From the NCBI GenBank assembly GCA_964567265.1, contig CAZMLK010000001.1, forward strand, positions 262,574 through 326,573: a stretch of 64,000 bases of DNA, given 5' to 3'. The notes under the pieces are model-generated. The model did no database searches. It saw only the letters and a list, made by a program, of their open reading frames with translations, and was not told the DNA's origin. The translations under genes were made by a program, and so were the position numbers. The DNA is from an uncultured Candidatus Saccharibacteria bacterium (GTDB taxonomy: Bacteria; Patescibacteriota; Minisyncoccia; Phycocordibacterales; UBA12088). Of this stretch, positions 10,454-63,630 are shown piece by piece; position 1 is the first letter of the stretch; each line of letters begins with the position of its first letter.

Positions 10454-11098
10454 ATGGATACGATGGATACCAAGCCTGAGATTTCGGGTAAGAAGAGCTG
10501 GAAGATGATGTTGAAGGACAAGAAGGTGATGGGCGGGCTTGTGATCGCAGTCGTCATCATCCTGATCGCGCTCCTGTATGTCTTCAAGGCATGCTTCGTT
10601 GCTGCGACCGTGAACGGTTCTCCGATCAGCCGCTGGAGCATCATGAAGGCCGCAGAGAAGCAGGTCGGCGCGCAGATTCTCGAGTCGAAGATCACCGAGA
10701 AGCTCATCAAGACCGAGCTTGCGAAGCAGAAGATTACTGTCGACCAATCTGAAATCGATGCTGAAGTGAAGAAGGTCGAGGACCAGATCACCGCACAGGG
10801 CGGCACGCTCGATCAGGCGCTCGCGCAGCAGGGCATGACCAAGGATCAGTTCATCGACCAGATCAAGGTCCAGAAGGAAGTCGAGAAGCTCCTCATGGAC
10901 AAGGTCGCCGTCTCTGACGAAGACATCACCAAGTACATCGCTGACAACAAGCTCACCGCGCCGGCAGGCATGAGCGCGGACGATATGCGAAAGCAGATCC
11001 GCGACATCATCAAGCAGCAGAAGTTCAGCGCGGCAGCGCAGGAGTGGGTCGCGGGACTCCGCACCAATTCGAAGGTGAATACGTACGTGAAGTTCTAA
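10454..11098 (+). CDS. membrane-anchored SurA N-terminal-domain-like chaperone protein
   Basis: N-terminal TM helix followed by a Lys/Glu-rich coiled domain resembling the SurA_N/PrsA N-terminal region. No PPIase motif is seen. Confidence 0.5.
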   Translation: MDTMDTKPEISGKKSWKMMLKDKKVMGGLVIAVVIILIALLYVFKACFVAATVNGSPISRWSIMKAAEKQVGAQILESKITEKLIKTELAKQKITVDQSEIDAEVKKVEDQITAQGGTLDQALAQQGMTKDQFIDQIKVQKEVEKLLMDKVAVSDEDITKYIADNKLTAPAGMSADDMRKQIRDIIKQQKFSAAAQEWVAGLRTNSKVNTYVKF

Positions 11099-11123
11099 TC
11101 GCAATTTCCGGATAGTCGAGAAA

Positions 11124-11155
11124 CCCCGCGCCTTCGGCGCGGGGTTTCGTTTTCA
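11124..11155 (+). terminator. rho-independent terminator
   Basis: CCCCGCGCC ttcg GGCGCGGGG followed by TTTCGTTTTC. Confidence 0.6.
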
Positions 11156-11254
11156 AGACCAAGCCTCCTGGCCGAAACTTGACAAATAAAATAATTACTC
11201 TATTGTTTTTTGGAAATCCATGTTCCCATTGCAACGTGAAAGGAACCAATCGGC

Positions 11255-13481: not shown

Positions 13482-15125
13482 ATGACCCAGGATGAAGCAT
13501 TCAGTGTACTCAAGACCGGAGCGAATGCCTTCGTCACGGGCGAGCCTGGATCGGGAAAGACGCATACGATTAACCGCTACATCCGGTATCTCCGCTCGCA
13601 CTCGATCGAGCCCTCAGTCACCGCCTCGACCGGAATCGCCGCGACGCATGTGGGCGGCATGACCATCCATTCCTGGAGTGGTATCAATATCCGGAAGACG
13701 CTCTCGCGCTACGAGCTTGATGCATTGTCCGAAAAGGAATACCTCGTGAAGCGCCTCACAGCGGCGAAGGTGCTCGTGATCGACGAGATCTCGATGTTGG
13801 ATGCGGATACGCTCGATACGGTCGAGCAGGTGTGCCGGACGCTCCGCCGAAAGGCAGAGCCGTTCGGCGGCCTCCAGATCATCTTCGTCGGAGACTTCTT
13901 CCAGCTTCCGCCGGTCGCCCGCATGGGCGAGCCGAAGCCGCGCTTTGCCTTTGAGTCGCGTGCATGGGAAGCCGCGCGGCCGTTCGTCTGCTATCTGACC
14001 GAGCAGCACCGACAAGAAGACGATGTCTTCCTGTCGGTGCTGGCTGAGCTCCGCCGTGGCGAGCCGAGCGACTACTCGCGCGAGCATCTCGCGACGCGCC
14101 GGGTGATGCCCGGAAGTCCCGTTCTTGAAATCCAAACGAAACTCTATACCCACAACGCGGATGTCGATCGGATCAATACCGAGAAGCTCGGACGGCTTGA
14201 GGGGGGCATGCGCACCTTCACGATGGAGCGGCATGGCTCGGGGACCATCGTCGAGAAGCTTGCTCAGACCTGCTTGTCGCCTGAGATCCTGAATTTGAAA
14301 GAGGGGGCGATCGTGATGTGCACCAAGAACAATCCCGAAATGGGATTCGTCAACGGCACGCTCGGCACCGTGATGCGTTTTGAAAAGGAAAGTGGCCGGC
14401 CGGTCATAAAGACGCATGACAAGCGCGAGCTCACGCTCGCGCCAATGGAGTGGACCATCGAGGATAACGGCAAGGTGATCGCGAAGGTGGTCCAGATCCC
14501 GCTTCGCCTCGCCTGGGCAATGACCGTCCACAAGAGCCAGGGCATGTCCCTCGACGCCGCTGTCATCGATCTCTCGAATGCATTTGAATATGGCCAGGGA
14601 TACGTCGCACTCTCGCGCATCCGCACGCTCGACGGCCTCCATCTCCTCGGCATCAATGAGCGCGCGCTCGAAGTGCATCCGCAGATTCTAGAAAAGGATG
14701 CTGACATGCGGAGCTCATCCAAAGATGTTGGCAACGCCTTCGGCAGTATGAGCGCCGTTGAAAAGAAAACGATGGAAGAGAATTTCATCCGTGCGCAGGG
14801 CGGCACGCTTGAGGAAGTGAAAGTCGAGAAGCAGACCGGCGTAACCCGAATCCGAAGCGCCAAGAAGAAGACGCCTGAGGAGCAGGCGAAAAGCGATTCC
14901 TACCAGGCGAAGCTCGCGAAGCTTCGTGAGAAATTCCCGAATGCATTCATGCCCTGGAAGAAGGAAGATGACGAGAAGCTCATCGCGAACTTCGACGGGG
15001 AAGAGTCGGTCCCGAAACTCATCAAGCTCATGGGCCGCCAGCGGGGCTCCATCCGCGCCCGCCTCGTGAAGCATGGCCTCATAGAAGACGACACCGTAGG
15101 AGCAGTCGAAGCGGAGATTTTCTAG
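13482..15125 (+). CDS. PIF1/RecD-family ATP-dependent DNA helicase with a roughly 110-aa C-terminal extension
   Basis: Walker A GEPGSGKTH. VLVIDEISML and PFGGLQIIFVGDFFQLPPV motifs. HKSQGMSLD lies in the C-terminal helicase domain. SD GGAGGA upstream. Confidence 0.8.
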   Translation: MTQDEAFSVLKTGANAFVTGEPGSGKTHTINRYIRYLRSHSIEPSVTASTGIAATHVGGMTIHSWSGINIRKTLSRYELDALSEKEYLVKRLTAAKVLVIDEISMLDADTLDTVEQVCRTLRRKAEPFGGLQIIFVGDFFQLPPVARMGEPKPRFAFESRAWEAARPFVCYLTEQHRQEDDVFLSVLAELRRGEPSDYSREHLATRRVMPGSPVLEIQTKLYTHNADVDRINTEKLGRLEGGMRTFTMERHGSGTIVEKLAQTCLSPEILNLKEGAIVMCTKNNPEMGFVNGTLGTVMRFEKESGRPVIKTHDKRELTLAPMEWTIEDNGKVIAKVVQIPLRLAWAMTVHKSQGMSLDAAVIDLSNAFEYGQGYVALSRIRTLDGLHLLGINERALEVHPQILEKDADMRSSSKDVGNAFGSMSAVEKKTMEENFIRAQGGTLEEVKVEKQTGVTRIRSAKKKTPEEQAKSDSYQAKLAKLREKFPNAFMPWKKEDDEKLIANFDGEESVPKLIKLMGRQRGSIRARLVKHGLIEDDTVGAVEAEIF

Positions 15126-60051: not shown

Positions 60052-60124
60052 GGGCCCGTAGCTTAGTTGGTAGAGCACCTCATTTGCAATGAGGGGGTCA
60101 GGAGTTCGAATCTCCTCGGGTCCA
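60052..60124 (+). tRNA. tRNA-Ala (anticodon UGC)
   Basis: Cloverleaf folded by hand. Acceptor stem GGGCCCG/CGGGUCC with a G3:U70 wobble pair, D-arm GCUU..GAGC, anticodon loop UUUGCAA, T-arm AGGAG-UUCGAAU-CUCCU and discriminator A73. CCA is not encoded. Confidence 0.9.
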
Positions 60125-60126
60125 CA

Positions 60127-60167
60127 AAATACAAAAGCCCTGCCACTTTGGCAGGGCTTTTGTATTT
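60127..60167. terminator. 19-bp perfect-stem hairpin terminator, bidirectional
   Basis: AAATACAAAAGCCCTGCCA ctt TGGCAGGGCTTTTGTATTT. Inner stem of a larger 89-nt palindrome. Confidence 0.7.
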
Positions 60168-60378
60168 CAGTGAATGACCCGAGGAGATTCGAAAGCCGGA
60201 AAACAATGCTCCCGGGGAGCAGTGTTTGAGGCGGGGTCGCGAACACTGAGCAACTCGTGAGCGAAAATGCGCTCGTCAGGATGTTCCAATCACCAATAAG
60301 AACATTTCCTGGAGAAAGCCAAGATGGTAGCATATCTACTATACGTTTTTTATAAGTCGATTTTTCAAATTTTGAAGC

Positions 60379-61788
60379 ATGTCAACATCACACACCCTGA
60401 AGGCACTCGCATTCGGGATTACACTGCTCGCGTTCGCTCCTATCTCTTACGCGGCATTTGATACCGATCTCCAGTTTGGCGCAAAGGGCGCTGAGACAGT
60501 TGAGCTCCAAAAAGTACTGATTAGTCAAGGATATCTGAACGGGACTGCGACCGGTAATTTCCTTTCGTTGACAAAACAGGCAGTTATCAAATTCCAGAAA
60601 GCGTCGAATGTTCCGGGAACGGGCTATGTAGGCCCGCTGACTCGTGCGAAGCTTAGACTTCTAGTCGGAACCCCTGTTACATCAACTCCAATCATTGCGA
60701 CAACAACGATCGCTGTTCCTGCAGTGCCAGCTCCAAGTGTTTCAACTCCCCAAGTGCCGGCAATTCCATTTTACGTTGCGAAAACTATCTGGGAGTTTTC
60801 CGATAACACGAGCCCGTTCCAACTTCCGGCCACGAATACTCCCCCCGCTTCAAATTTCGTAGACCCAGCACTTTTTACAGAGAAGCAAATAGATCCACGT
60901 GCGATCGTGCTTGTGCGGTGCCTGTATGTGCCTGACTACTCCAAAACGAGTTACAAGGGAAGTACCGAACCCCAAGTGTTTTCAGGTACGGGCGTCGTCG
61001 TTTCGCCGGAAGGGCATATTCTCTCGGCTGGCCATATCTTGAATGGTGCAGTGCTGCTTGAAGAGTCGGGCTCGAATGTCACTTGGACAAGAAAGGGGTG
61101 CGACATTGCGCCAACATCTTCCTCACTAACCCCTATAGACCCATCTGCTGGTGTTTCAAATAAAACACACTTCGATCCTGTGGAAATCGTCTTCGAACCT
61201 TCCGCAACGGAGTTCAATGTCATCAAGGTGACTGATCCAGACAGCCCCGGAAAGACAATAACGCTTGGAGGAGGTGCCGATCTTGATTTCGCCCTCCTGC
61301 AGGTGAAGGGTCTCAATCTTCCGTATGCGCCCCTTGCGTCAAAATTGCTTTCTCTGAAGCCTGGCGAAAAAACAATAGGGCTTGGATACCCTGGAGTTGC
61401 CGGTAACCCATATGGGTTGGAGCGTATCGACGGACAGTTTGATGGATATATCTGGTCAGAATATTCCACATGTGTAGGGAAGATGATCGTTGAGCGCTGT
61501 GGAGTCAGTTACCAGACAAAACGCTATAAGAATGAGTACAAGAAGCTCTACGGCGTCCAGACTGAACTCGGCAAACATACGAGTTACTTCCGCGGCGGTT
61601 TCTCAGGCGGACCATTGTTCTATAAAGGAAATGTTATCGGCATCATTACATTCGGACGCGAAAATTCCTACACCAATCTGTATGATCTCTCAACGGTCGG
61701 ACTCTGGAACTGGGTGGTCGCGCTTTCATCCAACGAGATCGTGACGACATTGAGGATGCACGGAATCAATCTCGCAACGGTTCCATAG
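60379..61788 (+). CDS. secreted trypsin-like (S1) serine peptidase with an N-terminal peptidoglycan-binding domain
   Basis: Signal peptide. PG_binding_1-like repeat (ETVELQKVLISQGYL...KFQKASNV). His region LSAGHIL, GGFSGGPLF serine motif. Low GC. Confidence 0.7.
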   Translation: MSTSHTLKALAFGITLLAFAPISYAAFDTDLQFGAKGAETVELQKVLISQGYLNGTATGNFLSLTKQAVIKFQKASNVPGTGYVGPLTRAKLRLLVGTPVTSTPIIATTTIAVPAVPAPSVSTPQVPAIPFYVAKTIWEFSDNTSPFQLPATNTPPASNFVDPALFTEKQIDPRAIVLVRCLYVPDYSKTSYKGSTEPQVFSGTGVVVSPEGHILSAGHILNGAVLLEESGSNVTWTRKGCDIAPTSSSLTPIDPSAGVSNKTHFDPVEIVFEPSATEFNVIKVTDPDSPGKTITLGGGADLDFALLQVKGLNLPYAPLASKLLSLKPGEKTIGLGYPGVAGNPYGLERIDGQFDGYIWSEYSTCVGKMIVERCGVSYQTKRYKNEYKKLYGVQTELGKHTSYFRGGFSGGPLFYKGNVIGIITFGRENSYTNLYDLSTVGLWNWVVALSSNEIVTTLRMHGINLATVP

Positions 61789-61914
61789 AGCCTACGATCA
61801 ATGCTCGAGCAGAGTAATGTTGTCCGCGTTCTTCCTTGCCACGCGCATGATTTCGTGTTTTATTTCCGCTAGACCAATGGCGCATTCCGCGCCATATGAG
61901 TGGAGTTGCTTGTC

Positions 61915-63630
61915 ATGATGTCCGAAAACGCCCGCTATCTCTACGAAGTGCTGTTTGCTGGATTTGATTTCCGTCCACCACATCCGAATAGGTCGCTTCC
62001 GGAAGTGGTTCGGGATGCAACCGAAGCGGTTGAGAAGCATCTGAAGAATTCTCCACTGCTCCGTGCCTATCTAGAAACCGTTCCAAAAGGGCCGGGTACC
62101 GATTGTCCCGATTCACCGCTTGATGAGCTTGTCTACTATGTAGCCACTCAGAAAGGCTGGGTCGACAAGAAGGATCCGTATCTGAATCTCAGATTCCTCG
62201 CACGCTTCGTGCTTCCGGTCTTCGAGATGGAACGCCATGTGGTCGAGCGTGCTATTCACGGTCTTCGAGCGATCACTGAACAGCAGGAACTACTCTTTCT
62301 AGACTGCATTCTGCACGCGCGAGCCGTCGATCGGCTTTGGCAGCGCTGGTTCGAGAAGGTGGCTGCACCGTTCCAATCGCTCGACAAGGAGGGGCAAGAA
62401 CGGCAGAAAAAGAAGCTGGGGAATATCCTTCCACCATATGACTATACGGCTTTTGAGATTGATCCTTTTGGAGATATCCAGAATCGCCGTCCATGGGCAA
62501 AGGCATTCCCGAAGGAGATTGCGGCAATTGACGCGTCACTCCGCGAGCTTGAAGAAACGGAAGATCAGTATCTTGCCGAATACTTCCGAGCCCTTCGCCT
62601 GGCATACACCTGCGACCGCATCGAAAATCTGGAAGAACGCTGGGCAGAGGTAGACCGCGCGTGGGTACTGATTCCATCTGACAGCGAGATCATCCCTGTC
62701 CATGGCATGGAAAGCGCGTACGGTCATGCGTTCTGCGTCAGTCCGGAGTTCAGGCTCGAGTTCCGAACTCCGGATTCCATACGTGAGATCGAGCTCCAAC
62801 GAAAAGCTGCCGTAGAGCATGCAGACAAGATTCTCGGGCTCAGCAACGCGCTCATACTTGAGGCATCAAAAAAACTGCGGCGAATCGATGTCAGCGTCTT
62901 CACCCCCGGTATTCGTGCCGGCAGTTGCATCGATTTCCGGTATGCGGGCCAGGCGGTTCCAAATCGCCAGGCAGTGCTTCTGATCGGCGGCAAGATATTC
63001 GTCGATCAGAGCGATCCGGCGCGTGTTGCAGAGCGATATCAGACCTTGATTCTGCGTCACTGCGCTCCTCATACTGCCGCTCAAATCGCACCGCTCCTCA
63101 CGCGCGAAATGCAGATCATGGGTACGATCACTCATGAGTTCGCACATCCGATCGGAAGGACAAGCGCAAGCGACGAGATGCTTGGGCATACCGTCGTCTT
63201 CCAGCTCGAGGAAGGGAAGGCGACACTCGGCGGCATTTGCGCTGAGGAGTATGCCGATCCGTCTCCGGAACATCGCCTCCAGCTTGTCGCCAATGCTGTC
63301 GGTCGGATGCTCAGGTTCATGCAGCATTCTGAAATTACGAATCCGACCATTGCTCCCTATGTCCGGGAGAATCTCGTGACGGCGACGACGCTCTATGATG
63401 CGGGAATCTTGTCACTCTCCAAGCAGGGTTTGGAGATTGATATCGGGATGGCCAGCAGTCCGTATTGGTTCCAGAATCTCCGCGTTTTCTACGGAGATTT
63501 GGTCGCTGCATATGAGTCAAAGGATGCAGCGGCAATTGCATCCATGACCACTCTGTATGCCAATCCGGATGATCCGCAAATAGTCGAACTTATCGAGTGG
63601 GTAAACCGCGAGCTTCCGGCCGCAGCATAA
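61915..63630 (+). CDS. large hypothetical protein with an HEXXH motif (ITHEFAHPIG), unknown family
   Basis: 571 aa from ATG 61915; the ORF-track start at 61900 is a GTG. No recognisable family; possibly a zinc peptidase-like protein. Confidence 0.6.
   Translation: MMSENARYLYEVLFAGFDFRPPHPNRSLPEVVRDATEAVEKHLKNSPLLRAYLETVPKGPGTDCPDSPLDELVYYVATQKGWVDKKDPYLNLRFLARFVLPVFEMERHVVERAIHGLRAITEQQELLFLDCILHARAVDRLWQRWFEKVAAPFQSLDKEGQERQKKKLGNILPPYDYTAFEIDPFGDIQNRRPWAKAFPKEIAAIDASLRELEETEDQYLAEYFRALRLAYTCDRIENLEERWAEVDRAWVLIPSDSEIIPVHGMESAYGHAFCVSPEFRLEFRTPDSIREIELQRKAAVEHADKILGLSNALILEASKKLRRIDVSVFTPGIRAGSCIDFRYAGQAVPNRQAVLLIGGKIFVDQSDPARVAERYQTLILRHCAPHTAAQIAPLLTREMQIMGTITHEFAHPIGRTSASDEMLGHTVVFQLEEGKATLGGICAEEYADPSPEHRLQLVANAVGRMLRFMQHSEITNPTIAPYVRENLVTATTLYDAGILSLSKQGLEIDIGMASSPYWFQNLRVFYGDLVAAYESKDAAAIASMTTLYANPDDPQIVELIEWVNRELPAAA

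Follow-up and report, generated by a model that had tools for sequence, protein, structure and literature searches.

Why should a tRNA gene be followed, 52 nt past its end, by an exact inverted copy of its own 3' segment? The question is raised by an 89-nt composite palindrome near the end of the window (the whole 64,000-nt stretch of DNA analysed here, from an uncultured Candidatus Saccharibacteria bacterium), in which two 18-nt arms, the first of them inside a tRNA-Ala(UGC) gene, flank a perfect hairpin. The palindrome, noticed in a first-pass annotation of the bare sequence, is real and non-random: the coordinates of both arms and of the hairpin were reproduced. It is the junction of three parts, namely the tRNA-Ala(UGC) gene, a trailing hairpin and an insertion of about 110 nt (60167-60276), and it is the visible part of a partly decayed unit, one copy of a widespread and apparently undescribed family that we call X. 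X is a large family of small, strongly folded, non-coding elements lying directly downstream of tRNA and, it appears, transfer-messenger RNA (tmRNA) genes in Patescibacteria, and we have little doubt that the window element belongs to it. The first-pass annotation took in 89 nt only; the full element continues to about 60270-60276. The features of the locus, all on the + strand, are as follows:

60052..60124, +: tRNA-Ala(UGC) gene, intact, G3:U70 present, CCA not encoded (ARAGORN, Rfam and reading of the sequence)
60105..60122, +: S1, TTCGAATCTCCTCGGGTC, the T-loop, the 3' strand of the T-stem and the acceptor to position 71 (tRNA positions 54-71)
60127-60145 / 60149-60167, +: hairpin H, perfect 19-bp stem with a 3-nt loop
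60167..60276, +: segment found in the window and missing in the closest relative (L233/L234), comprising linker, inverted arm and X core; from alignment, boundaries good to a few nt
60176..60193, +: g, GACCCGAGGAGATTCGAA, 5' arm of X, Watson-Crick complementary to S1 throughout (18/18)
60183..60270, +: X core, full-length match to covariance model R1 (P1 5' strand, P2, P3, P1 3' strand), 37.4 bits
60195..60232, +: helix P2, outer pairs GCC/GGC (60195-97 with 60230-32) and internal loop GGA/GA
60201-60213 / 60215-60227, +: inner 13-bp hairpin of P2
60235..60262, +: helix P3, GGTCGCGA...TCGTGAGC, with one broken pair, a shortened form of the family helix GGUCGCG...CGUGACC
60262..60270, +: 3' arm of X in decayed form, CGAAAATGC; intact members read CGAATCTCC here and continue with the remainder of the tRNA 3' end

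The tRNA gene, the hairpin and the X copy in the window

ARAGORN places tRNA-Ala(tgc) at 60052-60125, and the Rfam tRNA model (RF00005) matches 60052-60124 with 71.8 bits as the only tRNA gene of the window; the cloverleaf, the anticodon UGC and the identity pair G3:U70 of a bacterial tRNA-Ala are all present, and the gene end reads ..TCCA-CAA. Segment S1 is the template of the inverted arm g, which continues imperfectly to 60200, extending the inverted repeat to 25 nt (60098-60122 / 60176-60200, 88%). An A stands opposite U70, and g is therefore not a copy of the tRNA-Ala 5' half. With 3 mismatches allowed, the 18-mer has just these two sites in the window, and no further copy appears in the following 9.7 kb (the remainder of the window and the continuation of its contig in L001, which extends 5.8 kb past the window). 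By our own estimate, chance alone would place an exact inverted copy of 18 nt somewhere in the window about 2e-6 times; chance is excluded for the palindrome because the same architecture, with arms matching the local tRNA, stands at more than 100 other tRNA genes.

Hairpin H has an inner GC-rich part (GCCCTGCCA-CTT-TGGCAGGGC) that is followed by the T-tract TTTTGTATTT, and so resembles an intrinsic terminator; a simple terminator scanner passed over it because the 19-bp stem takes up the T-tract in its pairing. For a transcript reading through the locus a minimum free energy of -123 kcal/mol is predicted (z = -9.7), and the pre-tRNA, if the hairpin were read through, is predicted to adopt the long palindrome in place of the cloverleaf. 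The suggestion that the palindrome could compete with tRNA folding is thus supported by computed folds, for the case of read-through transcription.

The R1 match at 60183-60270 has an E-value of 4.6e-7 in the 760 kb searched. The P2 pairs of the window copy covary across the X family, while three pairs of P1 are non-standard in the model alignment. The arm is continuous, i.e. not interrupted by the side hairpin P0 found in many members. The direct repeat of the tRNA 3' segment (CGAATCTCCTCGGGTCCA) that closes complete units is not present at the 3' end of the window copy, where CGAAAATGC stands instead, and we read this as decay or loss. As the 3' arm has decayed, the only perfect partner of g is the tRNA-Ala's own 3' end across the hairpin, which is the palindrome that meets the eye.

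Two further stretches of the window bear a resemblance to parts of this system. The sequence at 60266-60297 (AATGCGCTCGTCAGGATGTTCCAATCACC) is similar to the variable loop and T-arm of the tRNA (75%; about 17/21 in the best stretch). One candidate explanation is a tRNA 3' half displaced very long ago; the other is coincidence, possible because the stretch aligns with ordinary intergenic DNA of the relative and has no tRNA model match. At 13848-13982, far from any tRNA, there is a partial and weak R1 match (15.8 bits, E 0.35) that is probably due to chance.

A family of folded elements behind tRNA genes

When genomes, one for each species, were scanned for the 27-nt 3' end of this tRNA-Ala, 98 stretches were returned, nearly all from metagenome-assembled genomes of Patescibacteria (the Candidate Phyla Radiation): Paceibacterota, Saccharibacteria, Magasanikbacteria, Adlerbacteria, Kaiserbacteria and others. 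Eleven genomes sharing the tRNA-Ala 3' end have an inverted T-arm piece about 55 nt downstream, and X-like sequence at this distance is seen in about 16 of the roughly 90 Patescibacteria genomes that share it; no convergent minus-strand tRNA gene occurs in the loci of these relatives. The inverted 18-mer is hence not a universal appendage of this tRNA: it is missing in the closest relative and in about four fifths of the genomes with the same tRNA-Ala 3' end. The layout at the tRNA-Ala loci is: tRNA, hairpin, GGAGATTCGAA(A/C)GNCGGAG, hairpin, CGAGNCGG(G/T)G, a second helix, and a terminal ...CGAATCTCCTCGGGTCCA that repeats the tRNA 3' end in direct orientation. The 5' GGAGATTCG of X base-pairs with the 3' CGAATCTCC. 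A complete unit on the tRNA strand accordingly consists of a tRNA ending in S (the segment from the T-loop to the 3' end), a hairpin, the inverted arm g (the exact complement of S), a three-way-junction core and a direct repeat of S.

When metagenomes were scanned for the core pattern alone, more than 120 loci stood among the matches listed. X lies downstream of 15 tRNA types (tRNA-Ser, Tyr, Val, Pro, Asn, Gln, Leu, Arg, Thr, Gly, Lys, Glu, His, Ile and Ala), and several copies apparently follow tmRNA 3' ends, as judged by eye from the sequences. Model R1 finds 121 copies in 100 metagenome loci and more elsewhere, giving over 140 copies in Patescibacteria genomes and metagenomes. In 100 of 142 model matches a same-strand tRNA lies within 150 nt upstream (median about 57 nt); among the remainder 9 are further out in arrays and 14 at locus edges.

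The core folds into a three-way junction of helices P1, P2 and P3, as seen in 35 aligned copies from which R1 was built; RNAalifold predicts 25 pairs in this alignment, 16 of them with compensatory changes. Over 117 distinct copies, 90.4% of the cells are paired; shuffles give 68.3%, and sliding the partners gives 32-49%. Double changes number 664, as against 229+/-17 in shuffles, none of 500 of which reaches the observed count. The search pattern itself fixes several junction motifs, and the invariance of these motifs is therefore not evidence; the helices are free of that bias. The stems are nearly all Watson-Crick: G.U pairs (80) show no clear excess over A.C (59), a balance that is not decisive between RNA and DNA. 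Such near-pure pairing fits templated or DNA-level pairing.

Two hairpins accompany the core. One, of 6 bp or more, separates tRNA and X in 93 of 99 loci, and only about a quarter of these resemble U-tract terminators. The other, P0, is a 24-25-nt hairpin with a covarying 9-bp stem and a loop that is often CUGC. Among the 40 copies that keep the acceptor complement, P0 sits exactly between its 7 nt and the 5-nt T-stem complement in 32, and the arm is uninterrupted in 8.

Each locus has arms of its own. Over 9-21 nt the 5' arm is exactly reverse-complementary to the T-loop, T-stem and acceptor 3' strand of the local tRNA; at the 3' end the same segment, from the T-loop CGAAT onward, is repeated directly, typically over 18-21 nt, with many members having only 8-13 nt. 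Where the T-stem contains a G.U pair (L136, L137, L147) the arm complements the 3' strand and is not a copy of the 5' strand, and at a tRNA-Gly with the T-loop TTCGATT (L020) the arm reads AATCGAA. The arms thus follow the 3' strand at G.U pairs, at U70 and in T-loop variants, which argues that the tRNA 3' segment is their template. Between species, tRNA-Ala loci with an X can be aligned over tRNA and X at 75-87%, but not in their flanks. Cores within one genome are not each other's nearest kin, and similar cores occur at different tRNAs. A search for near-identical cores at different tRNAs gave only those of L116 and L127/L135 (92%), both at tRNA-Tyr-like ends and with compensating differences in the arms.

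The recurrence of the layout at 15 tRNA types, each time with a conserved core beside the inverted arm, speaks against an inversion scar, one of the two origins proposed in the first-pass annotation; the other, a 'designed structural element', is borne out in the form of membership in a conserved folded element. No Rfam 15 family corresponds to X, all non-tRNA matches in the window and the X-bearing loci being far under the gathering score. No description of such elements was found in the full texts searched, and one may exist outside the searchable library; a paper on group I introns in Patescibacteria tRNAs concerns introns of the anticodon loop (PMC13011429).

Another tRNA gene of the same genome is also followed by inverted copies of its 3' end. 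Past the end of the window, on the minus strand of L001 (6800-7190, approximately window +66900..67290), two tandem units of a second core type follow tRNA-Arg(CCG): GAAAACCTTTGCG...CGCAAAGGTGTACTG...CTGTAAGG, with arms matching tRNA-Arg including its TTCGATT T-loop. This second type has the same architecture as X and is also seen in L058 and L140.

Turnover of X units and how they may arise

The presence of X varies between near relatives, so that structural variation accompanies the inverted copy. The closest relative of the window locus, found in two samples (L233/L234; the encoded pterin-4a-carbinolamine dehydratase, PCD, is 97% and a downstream protease 84% identical), has the same tRNA-Ala and the same 19-bp hairpin without 60167-60276. 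L070 (filled) and L011 (empty) have flanks that are 87% identical, and L070 has about 500 nt extra exactly at the tRNA 3' end, made up of serial units, with the native flank resuming past the last copy of the tRNA 3' segment, which is also the most decayed. L025 has the sequence of L093 with a single unit added beside the tRNA; the filled L025 tRNA encodes CCA and the empty L093 tRNA does not. As to CCA at the window locus itself, the relative L233 encodes it (~60-65, TCCA-CCA), as against TCCA-CAA at window 60123-60128. Arrays of X are found in L071, L070, L183, L190/L214, L140 and L235, and the outermost copies in serial arrays are the most decayed.

We cautiously favour, as somewhat probable, the reading that X units are non-autonomous mobile insertions that enter tRNA genes at the segment from the T-loop to the 3' end. 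It is suggested by the filled and empty alleles, the arrays decaying outward, the strict target and the lack of coding capacity, along with a direct repeat that begins in the T-loop, the apparent use of tmRNA as a target and the missing wobble excess. An insertion would leave the tRNA intact and push its earlier 3' end outward as the direct repeat. A folded single strand would probably be what acts, with g pairing to S so that the stem rebuilds the target duplex; a recombinase or nuclease encoded elsewhere in the genome would be supplied in trans, and S would serve as the template on which the inverted arm is formed or corrected. This mechanism is put forward with much less confidence than the family membership.

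A folded single-stranded site appears the most likely mode of action on analogy with integron attC sites and the attP(+) of CTX phage, recombination sites that are used as folded single strands and whose stem rebuilds a duplex site. Like these, X is an imperfect palindrome that would rebuild a duplex, with structure conserved over sequence and a branched or variable distal part, and it forms arrays next to a fixed entry site, with an enzyme presumably acting in trans. The analogy is one of logic, as the single-strandedness of X is itself conjectural: unlike attC and attP(+), the X stem copies the target tRNA itself, carries no cargo gene and shows no link to IntI or Xer, and its arms are, by eye, tRNA-derived and not R boxes. 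With miniature inverted-repeat transposable elements (MITEs) and REPINs X shares a small, non-coding, intergenic, multi-copy and hairpin-forming nature, terminal inverted repeats and the absence of an own transposase. It differs from them in that its inverted repeats change from site to site and equal the adjacent tRNA 3' end, that the duplication is tRNA-defined and at least 18-21 nt long, and that units lie strictly just behind tRNA genes, on the tRNA strand. The window arm, exactly complementary over 18 nt to the 3' portion of one particular tRNA, also recalls the primer-binding site of long terminal repeat (LTR) retroelements; unlike such a site, it covers positions 54-71, X arms usually omit the discriminator and CCA, the matching tRNA gene is adjacent in cis, and there are neither LTRs nor a reverse transcriptase.

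Several points weigh against the insertion reading. No recombinase, nuclease or reverse transcriptase is tied to X and no excised form has been shown: among the open reading frames (ORFs) within 4 kb of 120 loci, all-against-all clustering linked no protein family to X, returning only housekeeping families (the best cluster is present at 9 of the 120 loci); no recombinase family is enriched near these loci, and no cassettes or intI occur in the fetched ones. The hairpin between tRNA and X is common to both alleles in the window and its relative but part of the insert in L070/L011 and L025/L093, so that either the unit boundaries are non-uniform or the relative lost X secondarily. After its hairpin the relative has TCGGGCCCTAC, 8/11 like the acceptor 3' end, and it may therefore have lost X instead of never having had it. 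The window copy has a perfect 5' arm and a decayed 3' arm, a combination not expected from simple neutral ageing. The re-matching of both arms to each tRNA is without explanation, especially with P0 interrupting the arm, and the position of P0 at the exact acceptor/T-stem boundary, like the constant placement of X on the tRNA strand, would be more natural for an RNA that mimics tRNA. Finally, the arms of some X-like cores in L235 are not tRNA-derived. This more distant relative has an array of such cores after its tRNA-Ala(UGC), in which (10800-11200) the closing helix CACGTGG/CCACG..TGG does not derive from a T-loop and an extra hairpin module is repeated; the X family is therefore more diverse than model R1.

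An excised circle might be sought in a metagenome contig (L161, 1-3200) that carries one X, its two arms mismatched, along with a gene for a DUF3800 protein and six small ORFs that match no family; a tRNA is absent, and neither Pfam nor PHROGs recognises a recombinase. Its identical 127-nt ends indicate a circle or a tandem repeat of 3,073 bp. The contig appears circular, but a tandem repeat or a cycle in the assembly graph may also give such ends, and this tells against its use as proof of an excised form.

A bolder version of the insertion reading, which we offer tentatively and hold to be less probable than its negation, is that X is a new Patescibacteria-specific class of mobile element or a small circular single-stranded replicon, whose arms are rewritten from the target at each move. 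One conserved core would then target any tRNA or tmRNA gene at its T-loop/3' end and leave the gene undamaged, a self-reprogramming, structure-guided integration with a tRNA-shaped recombination site; the periodic unit of tRNA 3' segment, hairpin, complement and core might fold as a rod or dumbbell, and the tandem copies could be rolling-circle products. X can also be seen as a variant of tRNA-targeted integrative elements, folded att sites and MITEs, and that it is something categorically new is a doubtful prospect. If the family is indeed what it looks like, X would be an overlooked and abundant genome component of the Candidate Phyla Radiation, decorating a large share of the tRNA genes in tiny genomes with a conserved fold that escapes every RNA or repeat library. 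Arms copied from the target in both inverted and direct orientation are unlike known integrative elements, MITEs and attC sites, and suggest either that site-specific insertion involves a templating step so far unrecognised or that a tRNA-mimicking RNA of a new kind is at work. Both possibilities have a bearing on the role of tRNA genes as landing sites and possibly on programmable insertion. For annotation, such tRNA-end repeats should not be taken for island boundaries.

The main rival, possible though on balance unlikely, is that X is a gene, or a co-transcribed module, for a small tRNA-like RNA. The 5' and 3' arms would form an acceptor/T-stem minihelix with the sequence of the neighbouring tRNA, P0 would replace the D and anticodon arms and the three-way junction the T-loop; excised by tRNA-processing enzymes or RNase III, the product could serve as a decoy, as a control on maturation or as a spare 3' half for the cognate tRNA, and in the window copy the arm would pair with the 3' end of the pre-tRNA instead. 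The paired arms of 7+5 bp with a side arm in the right place are indeed those of an acceptor/T-stem minihelix, P0 lying exactly at the boundary in the 32 of 40 copies mentioned above, and the arms often reach the discriminator or CCA. The downstream position on the tRNA strand (100/142), the strong covariation of the core, the alignment of tRNA plus X across species that do not align in their flanks, and the very stable predicted read-through fold all agree with an RNA, as do C-to-U changes in some older arms that keep G.U pairing (L066; the L025/L059/L069/L072 group). The order of T-arm/acceptor 3' strand, hairpin and acceptor 5'-like strand resembles permuted tRNA and tmRNA genes, and the GGAGAUUCGAA-N-GG motif of X the 5' region of tmRNA. 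Yet G.U pairs are rare and hardly above A.C, unlike in typical structured RNAs; a hairpin, terminator-like in the window, stands between tRNA and X in nearly all loci; and there is no room or signal for a promoter. Unlike tRNA-like RNAs, X has no tag reading frame and no possible T-loop fold, the upstream tRNA is complete, and A3-U70 in place of G3:U70 would destroy alanine identity. The copies decay, stack in arrays and differ in presence between near relatives, Rfam has no match, and a host RNA gene would have no need of arms re-derived for 15 tRNA types.

The tmRNA likeness was followed further. A tmRNA or two-piece tmRNA, to which the GGAGAUUCGAA-N-GG motif and the GGGGCGU of L015/L018 had seemed to point, was rejected: ARAGORN finds no tmRNA in the window or in 10 X-bearing loci, Rfam has no match at E<=1 or E<=0.1, the protease gene leaves a space of only about 200 nt, and a plausible tag is lacking.

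A less probable alternative, which we regard as improbable, takes X units as remnants of integrase-carrying islands or prophages at the T-loop of tRNA and tmRNA genes, in which an internal deletion joined attL and attR and the core is arm-type protein-binding DNA. In the 2002 classification of Williams, tyrosine integrases reportedly use the T-loop position of tRNA and tmRNA genes, with a direct repeat from the T-loop to the 3' end. X shares with such islands the target in the 3' part of tRNA and tmRNA genes (tmRNA being among its apparent targets), the intact tRNA, a direct repeat equivalent to the identity block of these integrases, filled and empty alleles, and serial accretion in tandem arrays, in which the oldest repeat is both the most decayed and the most distant from the tRNA; at 4 of 120 loci a large serine recombinase is encoded within about 4 kb. 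It differs from them in size, the more than 140 copies all being tiny (0.1-0.25 kb) with none flanking a large element in the fetched loci, and in having no integrase or other gene and no integrase enrichment nearby. Ordinary integrative elements do not leave an inverted copy of a tRNA 3' end, as had been remarked when the palindrome was first noticed, and an exact inverted target copy has no role in a normal attP. The compensatory changes of the covarying folded core are not expected of linear protein-binding sites, and closely related cores at different tRNAs, each with matching arms, make one core family serve many tRNA species. The viral collection contains no true X copies.

Two further readings were rejected. 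An island ending at a convergent tRNA-Ala is contradicted by L001, which has only tRNA-Arg(CCG) and tRNA-Ala(GGC) and no further 18-mer. As for a phage origin, the 18-mer in viral contigs is just a tRNA-Ala or tmRNA 3' end in tRNA arrays of jumbo phages, and matches to the X motif in the viral collection are chance ones inside coding regions of two phage groups. The two contigs concerned, L002 (3528-3602) and L003 (6634-7007), are 74 and 136 kb long and have arrays of 12 and 23 tRNA genes; the 18-mer is the 3' end of a tRNA-Ala(UGC) in one phage and of a tmRNA (tag ANKVKSLFTVNALSFA) in the other, and one of the two arrays includes a predicted tRNA-SeC.

A local one-off event, either an inversion scar between two tRNA-Ala copies or a template-switch palindrome around a bidirectional terminator, is highly improbable: a terminator-like hairpin is present without X in the relative and quasi-palindrome correction can in general lengthen hairpins, but a family model derived from other loci fits the sequence directly behind the inverted arm, the same layout is seen at 15 tRNA types, and there is no second tRNA-Ala(UGC), fragment of one or direct repeat within the 9.7 kb.

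Neighbouring genes and assembly breaks

Logan short-read contigs, whether of the organism or of its relative, all break in or beside the tRNA-Ala T-arm: at the start of L001 (window position 60097), the end of L232 and the starts of L233 and L234. Repeats of tRNA and X probably fragment assemblies at tRNA genes.

Upstream of tRNA-Ala the window encodes a UvrC-like protein, a D-Ala-D-Ala ligase, a sigma factor and PCD; downstream follow a protease with peptidoglycan (PG)-binding and trypsin-like domains (Pfam PG_binding+Trypsin) and a DUF7897 protein, with no integrase among the downstream genes by Pfam. The G+C content is about 0.56 before the tRNA and 0.47-0.51 after it. The low-G+C segment had been hinted at as possible island cargo (60379-63630). 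The protease gene is in the same place in the relative at 84% identity, and a relative at 50% identity has the same neighbourhood, with the gene order UvrC-protease-AOX-Ddl-PCD; the gene is native and not island cargo. The interval 60379-63630 is therefore not cargo bounded by the repeat, and the DUF7897 gene alone is variable. This gene (window 61900-63630) is an ORF of 576 aa, called as 571 aa in L001, and in L233, where it is missing, a second PG-binding protein is encoded directly after the protease gene.

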